A stretch of 64,000 nt of DNA from a virus: the IMG/VR virus record IMGVR_UViG_3300021389_000010, positions 1-64,000 of that record; one strand, written 5' to 3'. Positions 9,563 to 52,675 of the stretch are shown here, one piece after another. The first letter of the stretch is position 1. Each line of letters begins with the position of its first letter. A model generated the notes under the pieces. It did no database searches. It saw only the letters and a list, made by a program, of their open reading frames with translations, and was not told the origin of the DNA. Position numbers and translations under genes: made by a program.

Positions 9563-10072
9563 CTATAGAGGTTTCATTTCGTAATAGGGTGAGTATGCGT
9601 GCCTTACATCCCAGAGCCTTACATCGTCGGGTGTGAAATCGGCAAATAGATATTCGTCTGGTGATGTAAACAAGATGAAGAGTACTATGTCGGACTCTTC
9701 TTTATCCATCGCTCTCTTGTTAGCCTTGAATGTTTTCTCACAAGTCTTTACACTAAGTCCGTACTTAATCTTTGTTGACTCTACTATAATGTCTGGGTCA
9801 TCAGTAACATTCTTTGTTTCTTTTAACAGCGTAGACACTGTATATCTAGTTACCTCTGGTGTAACCTCAAAGTAATGACGGATAAGCAACTCACCAAGTA
9901 TGCCTATGTACTCTGTGTAATACTCTCTTGATACTTCTCCCAATAATACTGATTGCTTTGTACCCTTTCTCTGTTTGTGAGTACCCTTATACCTTCTGCG
10001 ATTAGCATCAATCCTTCTTAACGTAAGGTCATTGGCATATTCTTTTAGGTATGATGGGATCTGGTCTTTCAT
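9563..10072 (-). CDS. Putative PD-(D/E)xK nuclease-fold protein
   Basis: GILGE...PDII...SVKT motif order. Confidence 0.45.
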   Translation of the reverse strand: MKDQIPSYLKEYANDLTLRRIDANRRRYKGTHKQRKGTKQSVLLGEVSREYYTEYIGILGELLIRHYFEVTPEVTRYTVSTLLKETKNVTDDPDIIVESTKIKYGLSVKTCEKTFKANKRAMDKEESDIVLFILFTSPDEYLFADFTPDDVRLWDVRHAYSPYYEMKPL

Positions 10073-18956: not shown

Positions 18957-19604
18957 TTAGGCATAAGTCAATTCATTTAATTTTAATATTTCTAAACATA
19001 AGTCATGCGGTATCTTACTCCGCTCATGGTTGTTGGCTCTCCCTTGAGTGCCTGTTTGTGACCCTCTTGGTGCAGGCTCATGACAAGGCGCACCATTCTT
19101 ACACATAGGGCGTGGGTTCCAACGCAAGTCGTTAGTCCATATGTCGGTTGGCTTCATACGTGTGTCTCCATACTGGCAGTACGTTACCGTGTGCCGTATC
19201 GGATGACGCTTCATGAAGTCCATCTTGCGTAGCATACCACGAGGGTTCTCAATGTAGTACACAAGGTTAGGATTCAACAGTGTAAAGTAGTGTATCAACT
19301 CATGAACTTTGTCCATAATCTTGTCACTCTTTACAGCGAAATCTGACGTAGGTTCTTGTCCATTGCGGTGGTGTCTTACACCTGCAATACTATACGATGT
19401 ACACGGGGGTGATGCCCAGATCACATCGGGTACCCATAGATTCTTAGTGAATCCATGCACTTCTGCTACATCAAAGTCCAGGATGTCAACAACGTAGTCG
19501 ATACCACCAAACTGTTTGATGTCACTTGAGAATACATTCATCCCAAGTTCTTCTGCGGCTTTGCCCACTGAACGTGAGCCAGCAAATAATTCTAATACTT
19601 TCAT
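18957..19604 (-). CDS. C5-cytosine DNA methyltransferase
   Basis: LELFAGS, ASPPC and IENP motifs. Confidence 0.85.
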   Translation of the reverse strand: MKVLELFAGSRSVGKAAEELGMNVFSSDIKQFGGIDYVVDILDFDVAEVHGFTKNLWVPDVIWASPPCTSYSIAGVRHHRNGQEPTSDFAVKSDKIMDKVHELIHYFTLLNPNLVYYIENPRGMLRKMDFMKRHPIRHTVTYCQYGDTRMKPTDIWTNDLRWNPRPMCKNGAPCHEPAPRGSQTGTQGRANNHERSKIPHDLCLEILKLNELTYA

Positions 19605-20060: not shown

Positions 20061-20642
20061 TTATCCACCACGTTTAGAAGTTAAACGCTCAATGAAACTA
20101 AGTTTGTCACGACTTAGCCCGGTGTTCTTTAAGCCACTAAGACTTTGGTTCACATCATCACTCACCTCATCTGCAAGAGATTGTAGTTCACTTAGTGGTA
20201 CCTCCTCTATCTCAATTTGAGATTGTAGAGTAGACTCAAGGCCTCTGAATGCAACGAACTCATCGAGTTCAGTCACCTTACGGATAGCCATAGCCAACAG
20301 CGGGTCGGTGCTGTCATTGGATATGAACTCACGCAGTAATTGTTTCGCTTGATTTGCATCAAGTGCTTCAATCTCCACGCTATCCAGGATCGCAGGGGTG
20401 TTGGGTACTACCGCTCGCTTGAGTACTCGTGAGTCCTCTGCGATAGGTGTAATAGTTGTGAGGGTAGGTAGGTTCCTTCCTCTACCACAAAATTCTACGA
20501 ACGCTAAACGCGCATCCTCGTAGTCTTTTGCGAAGACTGTAAAGTAAGATAGCATTGTCTCACCCGCAGGTGCTACTCGGTCAATACTCTTACTGCCTTC
20601 ACCCAAGTAAGGATTGGGTACGGTTACTGCAAATACTTTCAT
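20061..20642 (-). CDS. Hypothetical protein
   Basis: Start refined to MKVF because the leader is shared with the GATase gene. Confidence 0.6.
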   Translation of the reverse strand: MKVFAVTVPNPYLGEGSKSIDRVAPAGETMLSYFTVFAKDYEDARLAFVEFCGRGRNLPTLTTITPIAEDSRVLKRAVVPNTPAILDSVEIEALDANQAKQLLREFISNDSTDPLLAMAIRKVTELDEFVAFRGLESTLQSQIEIEEVPLSELQSLADEVSDDVNQSLSGLKNTGLSRDKLSFIERLTSKRGG

Positions 20643-20680
20643 AAGCATAGTTGTGCGGTGTTATCCTCTTGCACTCTTGA
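20640..20680 (-). repeat. Conserved 5' leader element, copy 1
   Basis: AAGAGTGC-AAGA-GG-ATAACA-CC-GCACAACTATGCTT-ATG; near-identical to the copy at 22288. Confidence 0.75.
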
Positions 20681-20867
20681 GTTTGGTTGTTACTAAATCA
20701 TCTATGTCGCTCATCGCTAATTCGATTTCATGGGGTTGCGACCCACCATCTTCTATCTCCATCATACATAGGTCAAAGAAGTCATGCACCTCATCCGTAA
20801 GATCTGGGTGCTTGGCCACGATGTCCTTGCAGTATGTAATAAAGTTATCTATCATCCTGTCATCCAT
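20661..20867 (-). CDS. Hypothetical acidic protein
   Basis: ORF in the early operon. Confidence 0.55.
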   Translation of the reverse strand: MDDRMIDNFITYCKDIVAKHPDLTDEVHDFFDLCMMEIEDGGSQPHEIELAMSDIDDLVTTKLKSARG

Positions 20868-21178: not shown

Positions 21179-21409
21179 TTACTCAACTCTATCGTTTATA
21201 ATTTTATCAATACTATCTCGTAACTCTTTAGAGAGCAGTTCGGTAGGCAAGTACACAAGGTTACCCTCGTGGTCATACATACTCACCTCCAGATCTTCCA
21301 CCTCATGTTCGGTGTAAGGTGGCGTGTCGTATGTACCTTCATCTCGGTACACAGCAACAGTGGCCACCACGTTCAACGTGTTGTCTTTGTATTCTAATTC
21401 AAATTCCAT
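21179..21409 (-). CDS. Hypothetical acidic protein
   Basis: Start overlaps the GATase stop codon. Confidence 0.6.
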   Translation of the reverse strand: MEFELEYKDNTLNVVATVAVYRDEGTYDTPPYTEHEVEDLEVSMYDHEGNLVYLPTELLSKELRDSIDKIINDRVE

Positions 21410-22290
21410 TACGCTATATCTTTAAGGTCATCACCCTCGTAGCCACACTCAAGGCTTGTCCATAATTCCATGACCTCATCGACTGCATCGAGTTGGTATG
21501 CACTACAATTCATACACTCTGCGTTGAAGTTTATCTTCGTGTTTTGTGTGCCACATCCTACGCAGTCATACGTTCCTTGCAGTGGTGCTTCAGTGTCGTA
21601 TGCTATGTCATCTAACTCATCGGTAGTAGTTACACCAAAGGATGCGTTCCAAGAATCCACATCGGCCTTGTCATCATCCCAATCGTAGGTGTACTGGCTC
21701 GATCCTGTGACGGCTGTGCTTCCGTAGTATCGTACGGCACGTGAATGGCTGTCGTTACTGAACCAATTGTCACCAATCCATGAGCCTGCACCCTCATTGA
21801 ATATGCGGTACAACCCCTCGTTGTCCATGAACACCACCTTACTTGAGCCACCCAAGTATGTGAAGATTGCATCCTCGATAAAGGGGTTGTCGAGCATCTC
21901 AATATCTACGTTGGGTATGGTGCCCACAAGTTCTGCGAACTCGGCAGTGTCACTCTTGTCCTTAGTTCCGAACCCCGAAATAACACCGTTGTGTATGAGT
22001 CCAAGTGTAGGTGTCACAGCGAATGGGTGTAGGTACTCGTCACTCATACCGTGTGTAGCGATACGGAAGTGCAAGAGCATGGGCTTGTCACCCACATCGG
22101 AAGTCTTGAGTTCGCGGTAACGCTCAAGGAATTTGTCAAACGAGTTGCCCCCCTTGTTAGGGAACTTCTCGATACACAACAAGCCATCCATGATGTAGAG
22201 CATACCGGCCCCATCATCGTTGTTGTTCCAACAGTTCTTTAGTTTTTTCTTAGGTAACATCTTACCATCATTCATAATTGCAATACACAT
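21409..22290 (-). CDS. Class II (Ntn) glutamine amidotransferase
   Basis: Start MCIAI gives the N-terminal Cys nucleophile; N.DGAG, HFRIATHG, HPF, HNG and SDT motifs. Confidence 0.85.
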   Translation of the reverse strand: MCIAIMNDGKMLPKKKLKNCWNNNDDGAGMLYIMDGLLCIEKFPNKGGNSFDKFLERYRELKTSDVGDKPMLLHFRIATHGMSDEYLHPFAVTPTLGLIHNGVISGFGTKDKSDTAEFAELVGTIPNVDIEMLDNPFIEDAIFTYLGGSSKVVFMDNEGLYRIFNEGAGSWIGDNWFSNDSHSRAVRYYGSTAVTGSSQYTYDWDDDKADVDSWNASFGVTTTDELDDIAYDTEAPLQGTYDCVGCGTQNTKINFNAECMNCSAYQLDAVDEVMELWTSLECGYEGDDLKDIA

Positions 22291-22340
22291 AAGCATAGTT
22301 GTGCGGTTATATCCCATCGCACTCTTCGGTTTCGGTTATA
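22288..22340 (-). repeat. Conserved 5' leader element, copy 2
   Basis: AAGAGTGC-GATG-GG-ATATAA-CC-GCACAACTATGCTT-ATG. Confidence 0.75.
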
Positions 22341-22343
22341 TAA

Positions 22344-23720
22344 TTATTTTTGTTCTTCAAGAAGTTTATCCATCGCCTCCAAAGTAGGTTGCGCATCAGT
22401 CACGTAGTTCATACCGAACTTGTCTCGCAGTCTATCCACCGCCTCACTTGAGTACGACACGATAGTACGTGGGTCTACCTTGCGGTTCTTCAATCTACGC
22501 ACAGCACTCTTGTAGAATACACCTACACCATCAGCACTAAAATTGAATGAACCGTACAAGTCATCGGCAAACTGAGCGTATAGGCTCACTACCTTCAGCA
22601 CTTGGTCATTCGAGTACACCTTACGCAAGTGAATACCCAATGCACTCTTAGGATTGAGCATCATAGTAATCAATTGCAACGGCTTGATGTTCTCGTTAGC
22701 ACACATAATACGCATCAGATCCCTACGCCATAGCAGGTTGGTCACGTTCTTGAACGCAGGTGGTAAGCGGAACTCAATGTATCTACTTTGAATGTTGACC
22801 GCTGAATACTTGCCGGCACGCTTGTAGTTGTCCGGCTTACGTTGTATTTGCGAGTAGTGGTTAGTAATCCGGTGTCTCCATATAGTTAGAAACAACGGCA
22901 CGAATGCTTGAATCGAATCGAAAAATTCCTCACCCGATATACCGCGCTTACCTACATTGATGTGTCCACCACAATTACTGCCGTAGTCAGCGTTGATATG
23001 GTCACGAAGTATTCGGCCCTCCAAAGCACTGTCTAACAGCGGGTCATTCAAGTCATAGATTGGACTGACTAATTCAAAGCCGGTCTCATCGCATAGGCTA
23101 CTATCCGACTCGCGGCACCACCCTGTCTCATCCACAGCATCCAAGTCCCACGTATCTAACGGGTCATCATCTTCCTTCTCGACCTCGAAGCCGATTGTGT
23201 ACACAGTGTCACGTGAAGTGAAGTCCCTGCGAAACCCACTATGGTATTCATGCAGTTGGCGGTCATTCTCCTCTTGAAGTCGGTACTCCTCATTGCGCTC
23301 ACTCCAAAAGATATTCGAACCACAATCATCAATGTGGTACGTGCCCCCATCTTCCTCGCAGTACAGCGTGTCATCTGTCCAACACCACCCGCCTTCGTAC
23401 ATACTGTACGACCCATCTATGTAGGAAACACTGCACTCATTGTCGTAGTCTGGCCACCATATCTTGTCACCACACACAAGTGTTTTTACATCTGACACGT
23501 ACTCGTCATTAAGTATGGTGACTCTATTGAAACCCCCATCGTGGTGCAACATAGGTCTATCACACATCGCTTCTCGAGCAAACTCTCCCTCGTACTCGCT
23601 CGGTGCTGTAAGCATTAAGCAGTCATCTAAATTCTCGACTTCGCCGTTAAAACAAACGACTTGTCCATCTTTCAATTCATCCATAGGCATATGTTTATGT
23701 GCATCATTAGCCCTGCACAT
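22344..23720 (-). CDS. Putative amidoligase (COOH-NH2 ligase) with Cys/acidic N-terminal region
   Basis: GFEVE, DSSL, GFELVSP, CGGHIN and IEFR motifs; true start may be 23684 or 23690. Confidence 0.75.
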   Translation of the reverse strand: MCRANDAHKHMPMDELKDGQVVCFNGEVENLDDCLMLTAPSEYEGEFAREAMCDRPMLHHDGGFNRVTILNDEYVSDVKTLVCGDKIWWPDYDNECSVSYIDGSYSMYEGGWCWTDDTLYCEEDGGTYHIDDCGSNIFWSERNEEYRLQEENDRQLHEYHSGFRRDFTSRDTVYTIGFEVEKEDDDPLDTWDLDAVDETGWCRESDSSLCDETGFELVSPIYDLNDPLLDSALEGRILRDHINADYGSNCGGHINVGKRGISGEEFFDSIQAFVPLFLTIWRHRITNHYSQIQRKPDNYKRAGKYSAVNIQSRYIEFRLPPAFKNVTNLLWRRDLMRIMCANENIKPLQLITMMLNPKSALGIHLRKVYSNDQVLKVVSLYAQFADDLYGSFNFSADGVGVFYKSAVRRLKNRKVDPRTIVSYSSEAVDRLRDKFGMNYVTDAQPTLEAMDKLLEEQK

Positions 23721-23731
23721 TTAGGCTTAGG

Positions 23732-23841
23732 GGACTGCATGGGACTCGAACCCATAGTACACCCAAACACCACGTTATAAACCAAAACCAAAAGACTTGG
23801 TGCTTGTGTAGCAGTCCGTTTATAGTGTGGTCTCCACTACC
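23732..23841 (-). ncRNA. tRNA-like structured RNA, copy 1
   Basis: 7-bp stem GGACUGC/GCAGUCC, T-arm AUGGG-UUCGAGU-CCCAU, long central helix and an upstream GUGG-AGA-CCAC hairpin. Confidence 0.7.
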
Positions 23842-23853
23842 AAATCATCCCTA

Positions 23854-23900
23854 CAAACATAGGGTAACTATCTGACAATCAGCGTTAAAGAAATGTTAAA
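23854..23900 (-). promoter_or_regulatory. Early promoter TATGTTTG with upstream TTTAAC(A/G) direct repeats
   Basis: Box at 23854-23861; repeats at 23883-23889 and 23894-23900 (11-bp period). Confidence 0.65.
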
Positions 23901-24424: not shown

Positions 24425-24660
24425 TACACATTTGTGTTTTGAGGGGCAACAAACATATCGAAGTTGCCTTGCACAAGTAAGCGGAACTGCGGGTCACGGA
24501 CACTCTTGTAGGCACCAGCCAGTAGGTCTGTGTAGAAGCCGAACGATGCGAAGGCTTCGGTGTTGATGAAATCTTCGAACAGGTTTTCGATGAAGTCACG
24601 CCCCATTGTGCTTTCGAGGGCTTGCAATTGTGTGGTTGTGTTGGGTGTTGTGTTGTCCAT
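24424..24660 (-). CDS. Hypothetical protein, first gene of the early arm
   Basis: A-rich leader ending TTGCCTT-ATG. Confidence 0.6.
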   Translation of the reverse strand: MDNTTPNTTTQLQALESTMGRDFIENLFEDFINTEAFASFGFYTDLLAGAYKSVRDPQFRLLVQGNFDMFVAPQNTNV

Positions 24661-25021
24661 AAGGCAATCGTTTTTAGTTTTCGGTTATCGTTTCAACACC
24701 ACAAACAACCAACAAGATTTTTTAATAATATCACAACAAAATGTTAAAATCCCTGCGCATTATGCCCACCAATTTTCCTGCGTACATACAGGATCAGGCG
24801 TCGCGCGATGCTGCTTCACGCGTAAGGGAAGGGTCGAGTCAGTCCATCCCGTGATGAGCAAGTCCATGACTTGCGAAGGCGTGTGTGTATGTATGTGTAC
24901 GCGCGTCACTCGCGCGCATAGCACGAAGGAATGGTTCACATTTGAGATTTCGCATTCTAAGGGGGTGTGGTGCTTCTCGAATGGAGTCCGAGGTATGGGA
25001 GGTAGGGGATTGCCGAGATAG

Positions 25022-43574: not shown

Positions 43575-45883
43575 AAATAGTAATACACGCAGGATACTAC
43601 GCTGAACCATGGGACTCAAACACAGAGGGATTGGGAGGCACAGAACAATGTATAGCGAATCTAGCCAAGCAGTTTGCCGCTGTTGCGAATAACTCGGTAT
43701 ACGTTGTAGGTATGGTAAAAGAACGACACGACAAATACCTTGGTGGTGGAGATGTATACTATACACCTCTAGAGAATGTAAGCGATGTTGGAACTCCAGA
43801 TGTTTTAATAGGTGTGGCTTATCTACATTACTTAAAATATTATGACGTAGGCCCAGAAACTAAAAAGATATTTTGGCTACACAACGAACTCCCTTACTAC
43901 TGGTATCAAGGTGAGCGCATGACGGATAACGACATACAGCGGGCTTACAATGAAACAGAGGTGATTGTCTGTGTAACGAACTGGCATAAAGAAGTTTTCT
44001 CTATTCAAGAGAAGGCTGTGATACACCCAGATAAAATCAAGGTTATAGGCAATGGTATAAGTGTAAGCAATGTCGCGCCAGTTTCTAAGAAAGAGCCAGG
44101 ATCTTATGTATACACCTCGCATCCAGAAAGAGGGTTAGACAGAGTTCTAGATGACTGGGAACTTAAGTATTCAACAGGCTCAAATAAACTTCACATATCT
44201 ACACCTTCTTATGGATTGAAGTATTATGAAAAGCATTTCGCAGAGCGTGTAGAGCAAATGCAAAACGTAATCTATCACGGTAACCTTTCTGTAACAAAAC
44301 TGTACGCACTATTGTCGCAAATGGAAACCTGGTATTACCCAACAGAATACAATGAAACATTTTGTATTACTGCGTTAGAGATGTTAGCACACAAGGTTCT
44401 TCCGGTTGCAAACCCAATCGCTGGACTAGAGGAAACGCTCAATGGATTTAACAAAGAGATACAAGACTGGACAGCGGTAGAGAAGTATATACAGACCAAA
44501 GACTGGGGTAAGGTAAAAGAGGAATGGTATGGCCTTATAGAAAACATACCTTCACTTACTGCAAAGGACTCTATTGATTACTCTAATCTAGAGAACACAC
44601 CTCCCCTTCCTTTTGTAGACATGACGTACATCATTACCCTCCATCCCGAGAAGGAGCAAGAACTACGTAATCGATTTATGGAGTTTGGAATGATGAGTCC
44701 TGTAACGATATTCCATGGAACCAATGGGCATACCGGGGAGAACATGCCTACTGACTACGAGGTTTGTAATCATTGGAAAATAGATGGTCATAAAAATAAA
44801 TGGTGGGACAGAAATGTTTTGCCGGGAGAAGCAGGCACATCTCTTTCTCATTGGAGATTATGGAAGGATGCTTATGAAAAGGGTTATGAGAAGATACTAA
44901 TCTTAGAAGATGACTTTGAGGTAACAAGGAAGTTTAACAAAGAGGAATTGGAGACAGACTATGATTGGACTCTGTTCTACCTGTCTTGTAATTTTGTTGA
45001 GAAGCCAGAGGTTCTTTCTGAGAATCATGTAAAGCCAAAACTAACTTACTGTACTCACTCTTATATACTTACCCGTGAGGGAATACGCTTGTTGCTAGAG
45101 CAAAACTTTAATCATTACATATTTCCTATTGACGAGTTTGTTAGTGCAACATTTACAGAACATCCTAGAGGTGATCTGGGATACATCACTAGAGATACAC
45201 GCGCTATTGCATTAGCAAAAAACAAGCACATGTTTAAACAAAAAGACCAGGAATCTATGGGACACAATGTATTTGATTATACGAAGAGTTTTTTGAGAAA
45301 CATACCTTACGATGAGTTCGTGGAAAAGTTCTTGACATACAGCGCAAAGTTGAAGAAGTTTGACTTGATAGTAGATGAGCCTATACCGGACGTCTTTACG
45401 TTTCCGTTATTCACAGAGGAGTTTTGTGACTTAGTAATCAAAGAGGCAAATGCTTCTGGAAAGTGGACGAAGGACAGACACGAATATTATCCCGCTACAG
45501 ATATGCTGATTAGTGAACTAGGCTTGCACTGGTACTATGAAAGAATACTAAAAGAATATGTGTACCCGGCAGCAATACATTTATGGCAACTAAGTGGTAA
45601 GGGATGGAATGTAATGAATACTGAAACCTTTATTATAAAATACGAAGAGTCTGTACAAGGACATCTTGACCTGCATCACGATGCTGCAGACATATCTTGT
45701 GTGCTTGCTCTTAACGACGGGTATGAAGGAGGAGGAACTTATTTTAGTAGACAGAGTGCCCTGCATAAAGGGAAGGTTGGACACATAGCGATTCACCCAT
45801 CTCAAGTCACACACCTTCATGGAGCAAGACCTGTGGTTAAGGGAGAGCGATATGTACAGGTATCGTTTTGTAAAAGGCCATAG
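43571..45883 (+). CDS. Three-domain enzyme: GT4-like + GT25 (collagen galactosyltransferase-like) + PLOD-like lysyl hydroxylase
   Basis: YTSHPERGL and ETFCITALE; GEAGTSLSH..LW, ILEDD and PIDEF...HP; DVFTFPLFTEEFCD, HHD and THLHGARPV..GERY..VSF. Confidence 0.85.
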   Translation: MKIVIHAGYYAEPWDSNTEGLGGTEQCIANLAKQFAAVANNSVYVVGMVKERHDKYLGGGDVYYTPLENVSDVGTPDVLIGVAYLHYLKYYDVGPETKKIFWLHNELPYYWYQGERMTDNDIQRAYNETEVIVCVTNWHKEVFSIQEKAVIHPDKIKVIGNGISVSNVAPVSKKEPGSYVYTSHPERGLDRVLDDWELKYSTGSNKLHISTPSYGLKYYEKHFAERVEQMQNVIYHGNLSVTKLYALLSQMETWYYPTEYNETFCITALEMLAHKVLPVANPIAGLEETLNGFNKEIQDWTAVEKYIQTKDWGKVKEEWYGLIENIPSLTAKDSIDYSNLENTPPLPFVDMTYIITLHPEKEQELRNRFMEFGMMSPVTIFHGTNGHTGENMPTDYEVCNHWKIDGHKNKWWDRNVLPGEAGTSLSHWRLWKDAYEKGYEKILILEDDFEVTRKFNKEELETDYDWTLFYLSCNFVEKPEVLSENHVKPKLTYCTHSYILTREGIRLLLEQNFNHYIFPIDEFVSATFTEHPRGDLGYITRDTRAIALAKNKHMFKQKDQESMGHNVFDYTKSFLRNIPYDEFVEKFLTYSAKLKKFDLIVDEPIPDVFTFPLFTEEFCDLVIKEANASGKWTKDRHEYYPATDMLISELGLHWYYERILKEYVYPAAIHLWQLSGKGWNVMNTETFIIKYEESVQGHLDLHHDAADISCVLALNDGYEGGGTYFSRQSALHKGKVGHIAIHPSQVTHLHGARPVVKGERYVQVSFCKRP

Positions 45884-48005: not shown

Positions 48006-48299
48006 TTATATTCTAGAGATAGTAGTTGTCTCTCTTCGTCCGTACCAAACGTGGTAGGAGATTCTCCACTTTTTGTGATAGAAGATTCTACTGTGTCCAT
48101 TCAAATCTTCTACAATCCTGTGCGGTTGTGCTAACTGCATCTCTGTAGGTAGGTCAACATAGTCGATGTGAACAATGGTGTCTCCAGGAAATGGGATTGA
48201 CAATTCGTACTCGTATCCTGCTGCTAAATCGAGGATACTTTCTTGTGCATTTGCTGCTACTCCAGTAAGGAGTAATAGGCTCATAATTAAATGTTTCAT
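48006..48299 (-). CDS. Small exported protein
   Basis: Signal peptide ending ANA-Q. Confidence 0.65.
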   Translation of the reverse strand: MKHLIMSLLLLTGVAANAQESILDLAAGYEYELSIPFPGDTIVHIDYVDLPTEMQLAQPHRIVEDLNGHSRIFYHKKWRISYHVWYGRRETTTISRI

Positions 48300-48379
48300 A
48301 ATAAATCGGTTAAAATTTCACTGCAGTAAACATAGTAATTCCTTTTTAACTTTGCAACAATCAGTTAAATTTTTTTGAA

Positions 48380-49558: not shown

Positions 49559-50944
49559 ATGGCAAATTCGTACCCTCCGGTATTTAACGACAACAAAGCA
49601 GCGGTATTCCGTCGCCTTGACCCAGCGAAGTACACTTCGTTGGCTGATTTCATTGACGAAATCAACGCACCAGATAACCGTGACCAATTGGTTAAGACCT
49701 ATGGTTACCAGCAAATCTCTGGTGGACTTACAGGTTTCTTAAGTCTTACAGGTGCAGTACGCGCAAGCGGAACTGCTGACGCTGTACAGTACTGGGAAGA
49801 AACTCGTCTACACTCTTACGCTTCAGTTAACTTGGCAGCAACAGCGGCATCAGCGGCTACTACCTTGACTTTAACTAAAGCAACAAGTGATGCTAACGTA
49901 TTGCGTTTGAACGACGTTGTATTATGGAACGGCAAAGAGCGTGGTATCGTAACTGCTATCTCTCCAACAGGTGAGATTGGTCACGCTGCTACTGCTTCTT
50001 ACACTGTTGAGATTCTAAGTGGCAACATCGGTGCAACTGCAGCGACTGGTGCTTACAACCTTCCAGTAATCGGTAACTTGTTCGCTCAAGGATCTGATCA
50101 GAACGCTGGTTACCTAGAGTCAAACGTAATCAAGCGTACAAACTCTTACAACATTATCAAGGAAGTATTCAAGGTTACAGGTTCTCAAGCAACTAACATT
50201 GGTTGGGTTAACGTAGGTAACGGCGACTACCGCTGGTACGTAAAAGGAGAAATGGACACTCGTGCTCGTTTCCTCGACAAGCGTGAAATGATGTTGTTGC
50301 TAGGTGAGACAATCACCAATACATTGACAACTACAAACATCGGTGGCAACCCAACAGCGGGTGAAGGTTACTTCGCTGCTATCGAAGACCGTGGTATTGT
50401 ACAAGATGGTGAAATCACTACGTTCACTCAAATGGACACGTTGATTGAAACACTAGACCAGCAAGGTGCTGCTCCAGAGTACGCTATGTACGTAAACTCT
50501 TCTCAAGCATTAGAGATTGACGACATGGTTGCTTCATTAAATGGTGCTGCAGGTTTCACTAACGTAACCACTGGTATCGGTGCATTCGGTGGACGTGGAT
50601 CAGAACTTGGTTTCGACTCATTCAAGCGTGGTGGATACACATTCCACAAGCACTCTTGGAAATTGTTGAACGAACCAACACTATTAGGTTCTGCGAACGC
50701 ACACTACTTGGGAGCAATGATTCCGTTAACAACTGTTGTTGATCCTAAGACAGGCGATCGTGCTGCTGCTTTGGAGTTAAACTACAAAGACACTAACGGT
50801 TACTCTCGCGAAATGGAGCACTGGATGACAGGTTCTATCTTAGGTGTAAACAACACCAACGAAGATAGCCTTCAGTTCAACTACCGTTCTGAGTGTGCAT
50901 TGGTTACTCGTGCAGCAAACCAACACATCCTTATCACTGCATAA
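49559..50944 (+). CDS. Major capsid protein
   Basis: 461 aa, strongly biased codon usage, QYWEE..L and N...IIKE...V.GS motifs; followed by a terminator. Confidence 0.8.
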   Translation: MANSYPPVFNDNKAAVFRRLDPAKYTSLADFIDEINAPDNRDQLVKTYGYQQISGGLTGFLSLTGAVRASGTADAVQYWEETRLHSYASVNLAATAASAATTLTLTKATSDANVLRLNDVVLWNGKERGIVTAISPTGEIGHAATASYTVEILSGNIGATAATGAYNLPVIGNLFAQGSDQNAGYLESNVIKRTNSYNIIKEVFKVTGSQATNIGWVNVGNGDYRWYVKGEMDTRARFLDKREMMLLLGETITNTLTTTNIGGNPTAGEGYFAAIEDRGIVQDGEITTFTQMDTLIETLDQQGAAPEYAMYVNSSQALEIDDMVASLNGAAGFTNVTTGIGAFGGRGSELGFDSFKRGGYTFHKHSWKLLNEPTLLGSANAHYLGAMIPLTTVVDPKTGDRAAALELNYKDTNGYSREMEHWMTGSILGVNNTNEDSLQFNYRSECALVTRAANQHILITA

Positions 50945-50958
50945 GGAGAACAAACATC

Positions 50959-50988
50959 GGAGGGGGGCGTTGCCCCTCTCCTTTTTTT
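50959..50988 (+). terminator. Intrinsic terminator after MCP
   Basis: GGAGGGGGGC-GTT-GCCCCTCTCC followed by T7. Confidence 0.8.
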
Positions 50989-51008: not shown

Positions 51009-51809
51009 ATGGCAACACAAGCAAAGGCTGCACCTGCGGCAAATAAAAAGACTGCGCCCAAGAAGGGTTACAGCGCTATCAAAAAAACCCCTACCGCTCC
51101 ATCACAGAAGGTGTACGAGATTATCAAAGGTGGAGGTATCATATTCAAACTAAGAACAGAGGCAACAGTATTCGACGCAGAGTCAAACACTGTGCGTGCT
51201 ATTAGATACTGCCCAGGGGAGTCTAGTATTTATAAGGAAGAACAAAGCCCAAGTGCTAGACGTTCTCATATTGCTTTCAATAACGGATTACTTGCGGTGA
51301 ACGTGTCACAACCAAACCTCATGGAGTTCTTAGACAAGCACCCAAGCAATGTGGCTAATGGTGGTAACAAATTCAAACTTGTCGACAACAGCACAGACTC
51401 TGAAGAACAAGTAGAGCAAGAATTTTTAACACACGATGCTATTGCGTTGGTTCGCAATAAAGACTCTGATGAGATTTTATCGGTAGCGATTGCCCTTGGC
51501 ATCAACATCGAGCAGAAGATGATTGAGATTCGTCGTGAGTTACTGAGAGAGGCTAAAACAAACCCCGCTCAGTTTATATCAATGTTCGATGACCCACGTG
51601 TAAAAGTACGTTCCGCTGTTATTCAAGGATCAGACTTCCAGATTTTGGCAGCAAAGCCAGACGGAGTATATTGGTTTGACAGCGGCAGATTAATTCTATC
51701 AGTTCCTGCAGGGCAGGATCCTGTAGATATTATGGTTCGTTTCTGTCTCACTGAGAAAGGCGTTCCGGTTTACGAAGAACTCCTTTCTAGATTAGAAAAA
51801 CTTTCGTAA
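51009..51809 (+). CDS. Protein downstream of MCP, function unknown
   Basis: IRYC.GE.SIY..EQ and F.NG.L.V motifs. Confidence 0.7.
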   Translation: MATQAKAAPAANKKTAPKKGYSAIKKTPTAPSQKVYEIIKGGGIIFKLRTEATVFDAESNTVRAIRYCPGESSIYKEEQSPSARRSHIAFNNGLLAVNVSQPNLMEFLDKHPSNVANGGNKFKLVDNSTDSEEQVEQEFLTHDAIALVRNKDSDEILSVAIALGINIEQKMIEIRRELLREAKTNPAQFISMFDDPRVKVRSAVIQGSDFQILAAKPDGVYWFDSGRLILSVPAGQDPVDIMVRFCLTEKGVPVYEELLSRLEKLS

Positions 51810-51890
51810 GTTTGTCTTATCTCAGTACATAGGCATAGTAATGAGAATCGGTTAATGCAAGAAAGGGGGCCCCGTAAGGCCCCCTTTTTT
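51807..51890 (+). ncRNA. Candidate ~70-nt antisense sRNA with its own promoter box and terminator
   Basis: TAAGTTTG at 51807-51814; hairpin UCUCA-G-UAC[AUAGGCAUA]GUA-A-UGAGA; terminator GGGGGCC/GGCCCCC-T6 at 51865-51890. Confidence 0.55.
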
Positions 51891-51922
51891 ATTCGTATAT
51901 TTGCTACAAAGCCTCAAGGCAT

Positions 51923-52675
51923 ATGGCAAGTGTAGAAAGAGTATATAAAGCAGTAAAAGATATAGCGAACAAAGACCAGAGAGGGTTTATAACTCCCTCT
52001 ATATTTAATCAGTTCGCAGGTGTGGCACAGATGAATCTGTTCAACAGATTGTTTGATGATATATCAATGGCAAACAGAATGCGCCGCATGGCTATTGATG
52101 GCCCGCGTCAGTTTGCCTTCTCAAAAAAAGTAGAGGAAGACCTATCGACCTTCGCTAAGAAGGTTGAATTAACCCTTTCGAGCGGAACGGTTGCTAAACC
52201 AAGTGACTTTGCACGTGTCATATCTATATCAACTATAGGGAAAAAGATTCTCGGTGTACAGAAGCAGTCACTAGTATCTCTTGTATACAATGAAGACCAC
52301 ATTGACAGAATACTTAACAGCGATTTATCAGCACCCTCTGATGACGCTCCTGTCGCTCTAATAGCAAACGACATAGAGGTATTTCCAAATGTGAATACGA
52401 GCATCGCTAAGATTAACTTAAGATATTACAAAGTACCACAAGGCATTCTTCCAGACACTGGTGCAAAGACATCACAGTCCCCTAAGTTTGGTTATACTTC
52501 ATCTGTTGCTGGTGTAGAGATTTATTCTTCAGCCAATAGTGTGGACTTTGAATTACCAGAGCAGTACTTCACTGAACTCGTCAACGAGATACTTACACTT
52601 GCTGGTGTAAATTTACGTGACAGCGATGTGTACAACTACGGCTCTTCAGAAACCACTAAAGACGAAAGTAGATAA
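51923..52675 (+). CDS. Tail tubular/adaptor-like protein
   Basis: NKDQRGFITP..FN..A..AQ and S.DFELP motifs; position after capsid genes; TATATTTG box at 51896-51903. Confidence 0.65.
   Translation: MASVERVYKAVKDIANKDQRGFITPSIFNQFAGVAQMNLFNRLFDDISMANRMRRMAIDGPRQFAFSKKVEEDLSTFAKKVELTLSSGTVAKPSDFARVISISTIGKKILGVQKQSLVSLVYNEDHIDRILNSDLSAPSDDAPVALIANDIEVFPNVNTSIAKINLRYYKVPQGILPDTGAKTSQSPKFGYTSSVAGVEIYSSANSVDFELPEQYFTELVNEILTLAGVNLRDSDVYNYGSSETTKDESR

Follow-up and report, generated by a model that had tools for sequence, protein, structure and literature searches.

What is encoded in the short stretch between two genes of the capsid block, at 51.8 kilobases (kb) of virus record IMGVR_UViG_3300021389_000010, is the question addressed here. 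The window is the first 64 kb (64,000 nucleotides, nt) of this 82,425-nt phage contig. On its plus strand, a promoter-like box at the end of one late gene is followed by a body of about 45 nt, an intrinsic terminator and a separate promoter-like box for the next late gene. A first-pass annotation had placed these elements here, and all are present. It proposed that they produce a late, trans-acting small RNA that is antisense to the start regions of several early genes on the minus strand. The stretch is probably a trans-pairing RNA, judged by its sequence and those of its relatives, aimed at the start of an amidoligase-like gene. The trans-acting RNA of the annotation is strengthened in that pairing with one early gene is kept across three lineages; the main target, however, differs. 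The start of a 'GATase' gene had been given as the leading target, and the best-supported site is instead 23682-23691, which had been ranked third.

Structure and conservation of the module

The body lies between box TAAGTTTG and the terminator, which is the only one between the two genes (Table 1). The predicted fold of 81 nt has an energy of -28.6 kcal/mol (z = -4.46), and none of 200 shuffled sequences folds as well. The module is single-copy. No Rfam family matched at gathering score in the whole window on either strand. TAnnTTTG boxes precede genes in this genome, with 19 of the 52 occurrences in the genome unit falling in the intergenic 6.7% of it, and we take this motif to be the Bacteroidota -7 promoter consensus. 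A sigma-70-type scanner listed neither box TAAGTTTG nor the terminator; its promoter consensus is not applicable to the host group. The '-7' term is in use in Flavobacterium and Bacteroides papers. The promoter of its own that a trans-encoded small RNA would have is seen here at the level of the motif only. As in small RNAs derived from the 3' ends of mRNAs, the box overlaps the end of the upstream gene and the terminator is shared with the mRNA of that gene. The simplest reading of this layout would be a small-RNA gene whose promoter sits where the upstream gene ends and whose terminator also serves that gene.

Sequences with the conserved flanks, whatever lay between these, were collected from viral and metagenome collections. 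The 36 sequences obtained represent 13 variants at the module locus, 12 of which keep the box, the foot of the hairpin, the loop CAUAGGCAUAG and the linker UCGGUUA. In DNA terms, TTTG of the box, the start ATCTC, the loop CATAGGCATAG and TCGGTTA are invariant in these 12, while the 3-4 nt that directly follow the box, and the spacer that leads up to the terminator, are variable. The whole TAnnTTTG is kept in 12 out of 12, and the box is also found in the more distant records G012 and G016 to G019. The module has 74-84% identity to the window, versus 43-64% when third codon positions in the genes on either side are compared, and on this comparison it is under purifying selection. The hairpin is too conserved for compensation to be seen: six of its nine pairs do not vary, and another is G-U in eleven variants and A-U in the remaining one. 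In G012 one C-G pair is U-A, as read by eye. Two terminator pairs change on both sides among the variants and are thus compensated.

The thirteenth variant (G001 type) has an unrelated 50 nt of equal length at this place, with a hairpin and without the box. Considered as an analogous RNA, this replacement sequence gave no enrichment of matches (P 0.29-0.60) and was rejected. Its presence bears on the possibility that the module is only the structured 3' untranslated end of a late mRNA, made up of a stabilising hairpin and a terminator, with pairing that arises by chance and is aided by two CAU triplets in the loop. This is unlikely. The hairpin of the same length without box or enrichment in G001-type phages speaks for such a 3' end, yet a stabilising hairpin needs neither an invariant 9-nt loop nor an invariant linker, and the plus-strand box is kept across lineages. 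The pairing data that also bear on it are given below.

Complementarity to one early gene in three lineages

Distant relatives were reached through an alignment of amidotransferase homologs. In 15 records, the locus 3' of the gene of 266 amino acids (aa) was examined together with the 5' region of the ortholog of the amidoligase-like gene (22344-23690). Box, body and terminator are present at the locus in seven of the 15, including the window. The bodies are of three unrelated sequences, one found in the window and G006, one in G016, G017 and G018, and one in G019; G012 has a diverged form of the first. Each module was matched to the 5' region of its own genome's amidoligase-like gene. The best helix was compared with those of 1000 dinucleotide shuffles, and the gene was ranked among the gene starts of that genome.

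The window module forms 10 base pairs (bp) on the AUG at -13.2 kcal/mol (P 0.026), all of them perfect, and the gene is third of 73. In G006 there are 12 bp on the AUG (-15.5, P 0.001, rank 1 of 47). The G016 helix of 14 bp runs from the predicted 5' end of the RNA and lies across the AUG (-19.6, P 0.001, rank 1 of 80), and that of G017 has 13 bp just upstream of the AUG (-18.3, P 0.007, rank 1 of 80). In G019, 16 bp form at -31 to -16 (-18.4, equalled in 0 of 1000 shuffles, rank 1 of 66); the second paralog of the gene in this genome gave P 0.56. P is therefore 0.026 or lower in five of the seven module-bearing records, with G012 and G018 failing. In G006, G016, G017 and G019, which between them have all three versions of the body, no gene start is matched better than that of this early gene. 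The seed-leader covariation in relatives that the first-pass annotation had called for is thus found for the site at 23682-23691.

Modules set against the gene of another lineage gave 0 to -12.8 kcal/mol, versus -13.2 to -19.6 within lineages. Natural windows of the same length ranked the gene first in only 6, 4, 3, 1 and 2 of 150 cases (in the order window, G006, G016, G017, G019) and attained the observed energy in 1, 1, 0, 0 and 1 of 150. The target gene is therefore not generally 'sticky'. The joint chance probability of the two replicating lineages, taken from the rank-first frequencies, is of the order of 5e-4. Records without box and body, having the terminator only or a G001-type hairpin, gave no result of this kind: P was 0.03-0.49, there was no helix, or the gene was absent. 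Because complementarity is kept across three lineages despite wholly different partner sequences, a trans-acting base-pairing RNA is indicated.

The genes compared are orthologs. The G016 target is a clear ortholog (39% identity over 403 aa, E 6e-88), and the G006 protein aligns at 36.5% over 353 aa by tblastn, with a best segment of 55% by blastp. Despite this protein divergence, the block TATGCCTATGGAT at the start of the target gene is identical in nine aligned sequences, and also in L077.

Over all gene starts, G006, a relative of about 75% identity in which both loci are present, has five matches at or below -11 kcal/mol with automatic gene calls, against 0.7 expected. No better sum of its top five was found in 500 shuffles, natural windows gave P 0.009, and the top match is the start of the ortholog of 22344-23690. 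The reverse complement of the module and the reversed module, which served as controls for strand specificity, have no match at or below -11. For G016, the enrichment at gene starts gives P 0.003 with shuffles and 0.037 with natural windows. The G006 counterpart of the 193-aa gene has lost the loop match from its leader, which pairs over 12 bp with another part of the module.

Table 1. Features of the candidate small RNA locus and of its predicted partners, in window coordinates
Feature	Position	Strand	Remarks
Upstream late gene, 266 aa, phrog_34748	51009..51809	+	Adjoins major capsid gene 49559-50944; TAA 51807-51809
Promoter-like -7 box TAAGTTTG (TAnnTTTG)	51807..51814	+	Overlaps stop codon of 266-aa gene
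Predicted small RNA, about 73 nt	51819..51891	+	Start taken from box spacing, end from terminator U run
5' hairpin, stems 51820-51828 / 51838-51846, 9-nt loop AUAGGCAUA 51829-51837	51820..51846	+	Fold prediction
Seed 1 GUACAUAGGCAUAGU, core CAUAGGCAUAG	51825..51839	+	Core invariant in 12/12 module variants
Seed 2 AAUCGGUUAA, predicted single-stranded, contains UCGGUUA	51846..51855	+	UCGGUUA invariant in 12/12 variants
Intrinsic terminator, 13-bp G+C-rich stem and U run, shared with upstream gene	51859..51890	+	Fold prediction
Separate -7 box TATATTTG of next late gene (ATG 51923)	51896..51903	+	Also kept in a relative with 42% protein identity
Main predicted target UAUGCCUAUG on ATG 23690-23688 of amidoligase-like gene	23682..23691	-	Rank 3 of 73 in window
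Site on start of class-II amidotransferase-like gene 21409-22290	22285..22299	-	15 pairs including 3 G-U; drifts in relatives
Site on start of 193-aa gene 20061-20642	20640..20651	-	45-nt leader same as at amidotransferase-like gene
Site UUAACCGAUUU in leader of small signal-peptide gene 48006-48299	48303..48313	-	Kept in G002, G005, G006 and G012
Head of early operon: tRNA-Gln 23730-23817 and early -7 box TATGTTTG 23854-23861	23730..23861	-	

Complementarity within the window

All of the pairings that had been listed exist with the lengths given. Seed 1 pairs contiguously with the starts of the amidotransferase-like gene ('GATase', -16.2 kcal/mol) and of the 193-aa gene (12 pairs including one G-U, -14.8). 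Interrupted matches of the module are found at the starts at 19604 and 24658. Seed 2, AAUCGGUUAA, matches 48304-48313 perfectly, and UAACCG is present at 22304-22309 and 24682-24687. The window holds a discrete, selected, non-coding plus-strand module with a promoter-like box and a terminator that is complementary to minus-strand early gene starts, and to this extent the first-pass annotation is supported.

When ungapped helices were scored at 70-73 gene starts, the top match had P 0.045 (400 dinucleotide shuffles) and those ranked after it about 0.01-0.03; the first two are copies of a single 45-nt leader. Three start codons were then moved to their probable true positions, to Met-Cys for the amidotransferase-like gene and to conserved ATGs for two others. 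With these corrected starts, the sum of the top five matches has P 0.005 against shuffles and 0.016 against natural windows, and there are four matches at or below -11 kcal/mol versus about one expected. Taken alone, the gene-start complementarity in the window is borderline. In the target prediction against shuffled controls that had been suggested, the window has P 0.005-0.05 with corrected starts and 0.1-0.3 with uncorrected starts or gapped duplexes, and G006 and G016 are enriched. The multi-target early regulon of the first-pass annotation is accordingly only borderline in the window, and several of the matches listed for it are lineage-specific or drift.

Among words enriched de novo in leaders, those containing ATG dominate, and the only complements of the module are ACTATG (4 of 30 minus-strand genes) and TACTATG (3 of 30). 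An extra match at 48327-48339, found in the present scan, was set aside as it is probably promoter DNA of the 48299 gene, upstream of the transcript. On the minus strand, 9912-9899 and 46859-46847 repeat 14 and 13 nt of the module exactly, within two minus-strand genes. These repeats include positions that are variable among the module variants and were treated as chance. At 24566-25021 the crude gene caller took a plus-strand open reading frame (ORF), and the minus-strand gene there starts at 24658 (MDNTTPNTT...). This gene has a counterpart in G006, with both leader motifs present, UAACCGA and UGCCUUAUG.

Evidence against pairing

A number of observations weigh against a pairing RNA. The lineages were set by eye from the module sequences, and the amidoligase-like gene was chosen on the lineage of the window and G006, which leaves only G016 to G018 and G019 as clean replications. 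In G018 the helix has 9 bp just upstream of the AUG (P 0.225, rank 8 of 84). In G012 there is no helix (P 0.82, rank 49 of 74), loop and gene start having both changed without compensation. The loop never varies within the lineage of the window, so there is no base-by-base compensation, and some of the listed target sites drift in relatives (L017, L022 and copy b of G006). Among the 12 module variants no compensatory change of a hairpin pair was found. Gene calls were crude (longest ATG ORFs), and helices were ungapped and took no account of accessibility. The ungapped helices were adopted after gapped duplex energies (RNAduplex) had failed to separate the module from shuffles (P 0.08-0.26). 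When 600 natural windows served as the control, start regions were widened and the paralogous leaders were counted once, P was 0.10-0.30, and automatic gene calls in the window gave P 0.12-0.23. Enrichment in the window thus hinges on the three starts that were moved; all of them are candidate targets, which favours the hypothesis. Helices that are equal or better occur off gene starts, for example at 9899-9912 on the plus strand (-20.5).

Several of these points are also what would be seen if the module were only a structured 3' end: window statistics that are borderline or non-significant without the correction of starts, many equal helices off gene starts, and two records, G012 and G018, in which the module is unpaired with the main target. 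That the same early gene is top-ranked in three lineages with unrelated modules stands against such a 3' end.

The two loci as DNA

It could also be that the two loci are partners at the level of DNA, being either inverted repeats for recombination or inversion or the sites of one DNA-binding regulator. The module is 45-75 bp upstream of a strongly conserved late promoter, and both sites are conserved as DNA. However, G-U pairs occur in the helices and would be mismatches if these were repeats in DNA. The repeats are only 10-16 bp, and the sites coincide with start codons or leaders. Upstream of other late promoters of the TATATTTGC type there is no such motif. A role as DNA partners is very unlikely.

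The first-pass annotation had itself raised the possibility of a relic: the segment would be a decayed minus-strand copy of the leader and start of an early gene, reading ATG CCT ATG TAC TGA and having no function. Read on the minus strand it has TAACCGA, 12 nt and then TGCCTATG, the layout of the leader of the 24658 gene (TAACCGA, 14 nt, TGCCTTATG). An inverted duplication may explain the origin of the module in this way; it does not explain its conservation under purifying selection. Nor is the mini-ORF conserved, having 4 codons in the window and 14 in variant 2, and there is no minus-strand -7 box. A profile of the 45-nt leader (nhmmer, E up to 10) detects the two copies of each genome but nothing at 51.8 kb, and other lineages have different bodies behind the same plus-strand box. 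The G-U pairs in the helices mean that pairing works only for a plus-strand RNA against sense mRNA. A functionless relic is therefore extremely improbable.

Target genes

The reading preferred here, a plus-strand RNA that pairs in trans, places its main target in the early operon. The order of this operon is box, tRNA-Gln, amidoligase-like gene, amidotransferase-like gene, and then the 193-aa gene and a methyltransferase, the amidoligase-like gene on the minus strand being its first protein gene. Amidoligase_2 (PF12224) is matched by 3 of 15 homologs of the latter, with a best E of 5.5e-4, and has no match in the window protein itself; the assignment of its product as amidoligase-like is weak. 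A profile search of solved structures with this family found nothing. The product of the 'GATase' gene has no direct match in Pfam, PHROG, NCBIfam or PDB. The label is supported by its homologs, which have the JGI name 'predicted glutamine amidotransferase', with PF13230 or PF13522, and the gene, which is class-II amidotransferase-like, begins Met-Cys. The 45-nt intercistronic leader (GAGTGC...GGATAACACCGCACAACTATGCTTATG) is found exactly twice per genome, on the minus strand at 22288-22332 and 20640-20684, and hardly differs among relatives, even where the protein of the next gene is only 66% identical.

In the window, the tRNA-Gln is followed by a hairpin (UGUGCA...UGCACA) directly before the start codon of the target (23692-23817, minus strand). 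This hairpin co-varies in G006 and L021 (GUGUGUA...UACACAC). The first ATG of the amidoligase-like ORF, at 23720, is not conserved. In the leaders L168 of G016 and L176 of G017, the window-type motif GCCUAUGA is paired in cis with UCAUAGGC in a local hairpin, and UCAUAGGC has the same bases as the loop of the window small RNA.

A second target that may co-vary is the leader of a small signal-peptide gene, which is only a lead. The window gene at 48006-48299 has the second-seed match UUAACCGAUU in its leader. In G016 (43991-44308) and G017 (22789-23115, oriented), seed 2 matches ACCAACC before the ATG of a small signal-peptide gene on the minus strand. Orthology of the proteins between the first and second lineages was not shown by BLASTP (E 0.2-0.3).

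Proposed mechanism

Transcription from the -7 box over the stop codon, or release of the 3' end of the late mRNA of the upstream gene, would give an RNA of about 73 nt. Its loop CAUAGGCAUAG and linker UCGGUUA, both invariant, are predicted to be exposed as single strands. Through these the RNA would bind in trans to the mRNA of the early operon, encoded 28 kb away, around the start codon of the first protein gene; in the lineage of the window, a few more minus-strand genes would be bound at their starts or leaders. There, the second and third early cistrons are likewise complementary to the loop at their starts, and the linker matches the leader of the signal-peptide gene. A duplex over the AUG would block initiation and shut the early cistrons off once late transcription runs. 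Such a duplex should repress because the host group initiates without a Shine-Dalgarno sequence and needs an unstructured start. Bacteroidota mRNAs are described as being without Shine-Dalgarno sequences, with the structure around the start tuning initiation (PMC6847099). Production of the RNA, late timing and repression are all plausible. Late timing is suggested only by the position of the module and by the box of G019, which has the extended late-promoter form GTATATTTGC.

The RNA may instead be real and pair with phage mRNAs without silencing them, through activation or guided cleavage, or it may have mainly host mRNAs as its targets. Conserved hairpins lie just upstream of the sites in the early leaders, GCCUAUGA of the G016 and G017 leader is taken up in cis by UCAUAGGC, and the G019 site at -31 to -16 is off the AUG. 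Against this, the helix covers or abuts the start codon in five of the seven module-bearing records (and is significant in only four of the five), which is the usual geometry of repression, and the early gene of the phage outranks all of its other gene starts. Pairing without silencing, or with mainly host targets, is unlikely, and repression of the early gene is retained as the proposed outcome.

Genomic setting

One genome unit is about 60 kb, and the contig corresponds to about 1.37 units. Its last 21 kb (contig 61118-82425) are a second copy of window 1-22000 at 66-86% identity; it therefore consists of two related strains joined, or it is an artefact of an assembled concatemer. No DNA similarity to deposited phages was found. 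Relatives of the capsid protein occur in 85 deposited phage records, all below 60% identity, of which 68 have Flavobacterium as host, 15 Cellulophaga and 1 Maribacter, with 1 unclassified. The distant protein relatives suggest an aquatic podophage of roughly 60 kb and of Flavobacteriia type. Hosts of this group are not known to have Hfq.

The minus-strand block at 9.5-27.7 kb encodes primase/helicase, exonuclease and DNA methyltransferase, and by these genes it is taken to be the early or replication block. The candidate small RNA is in the plus-strand structural block, two genes after the major capsid gene. A strong terminator (50959-50984) directly follows the capsid gene and there is no -7 box before the 266-aa gene, which would therefore depend on read-through of this terminator. 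One RNA contig of run X17 stops at 50979. Twenty-four runs were listed, and 14 DNA runs contain half or more of the sampled words. Contigs of four RNA runs (X15 to X18) span parts of the capsid gene and of later genes, and none has any of 51044-52139, which weighs neither for nor against an RNA from the module.

Comparison with known systems

Enterobacterial 3'-end-derived small RNAs of the DapZ/MicL type have their own promoter in or at the end of the upstream gene and share its terminator. As in these, the box here is over the upstream stop codon, one terminator would serve both RNAs, and a short seed is directed in trans to translation starts. Unlike them, the module is encoded by a phage of a Flavobacteriia-type host, its proposed target is the phage's own early operon, and the whole seed is replaced between lineages. 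In build, the closest analogues would be such mRNA 3'-end small RNAs with an internal promoter; in role, they would be the phage antisense regulators.

T4 RegA is a protein that represses the translation of many early mRNAs. The likeness to it is functional only, in that several early cistrons would be shut off via their AUG regions after the early phase; the proposed effector here is RNA and not protein.

P22 sar, P1/P7 c4 and P4 CI RNA are classical phage antisense regulators. Lambda OOP, which is named in bioRxiv 10.1101/2024.10.31.621285, is likewise one of these. As with OOP, sar and c4, a small phage RNA would pair with a phage mRNA to control a developmental step. OOP and sar are, however, encoded opposite their target and c4 in the operon of its target, whereas the candidate RNA is 28 kb off with only a short seed match, as in trans-encoded RNAs, and is not a copy of its target. 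Nor is it a cis-antisense RNA of the OOP/sar kind, with no conserved gene on the opposite strand and with its targets at 20-24 kb and 48 kb. Systems of the OOP/sar/c4 type serve lysogeny or immunity decisions of temperate phages.

In the same source, the lambda late-operon small RNAs LPR2 and 6S were found by RIL-seq; one target of 6S lies in an early operon of lambda, and LPR2 may act as a sponge for PreS, an RNA from the early operon (bioRxiv 10.1101/2024.10.31.621285). The candidate resembles these in being a small RNA encoded in a late operon with early-operon partners. LPR2 and 6S are Hfq-dependent in Escherichia coli, their roles are undetermined according to the authors, and in the part available no seed-target co-variation is reported.

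The proposed targets also have a counterpart. LUZ24-like podophages carry a gene pair for an amidoligase and a class-II glutamine amidotransferase in their early modules (PMC3890496). Here too an amidoligase-like gene is followed by a Gn_AT_II-like gene in the early block, with an Amidoligase_2 match that is weak; for the LUZ24-like pair the available text describes no RNA control.

Word searches confined to one literature collection turned up no small RNA reported from a Flavobacteriia or Bacteroidota phage.

Significance

The timing of lytic phage development is usually explained by promoters, by switches of sigma factor or polymerase and by a few protein repressors. Trans-acting small RNAs with which a phage controls its own genes are rare, nearly all of them coming from E. 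coli-type systems. It is possible, and we put it forward tentatively, that the locus is that of a fast-evolving small-RNA gene with a fixed place in the capsid block, whose seed is replaced between lineages and tracks the 5' end of the same early gene, giving an early-to-late shut-off, by RNA, of an early modification or takeover module. If this is so, a group of environmental Bacteroidota phages would switch off an early enzyme pair by RNA, and the amidoligase-like and amidotransferase-like pair would be something that the phage needs early and must stop making later. The RNA would be the first trans-acting phage small RNA for a host phylum without Shine-Dalgarno pairing and not known to have Hfq. 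It would also be a compact, portable repressor-target pair for hosts with few genetic tools, and the family would be a natural case of rapid co-evolution of seed and target, with three independent solutions.

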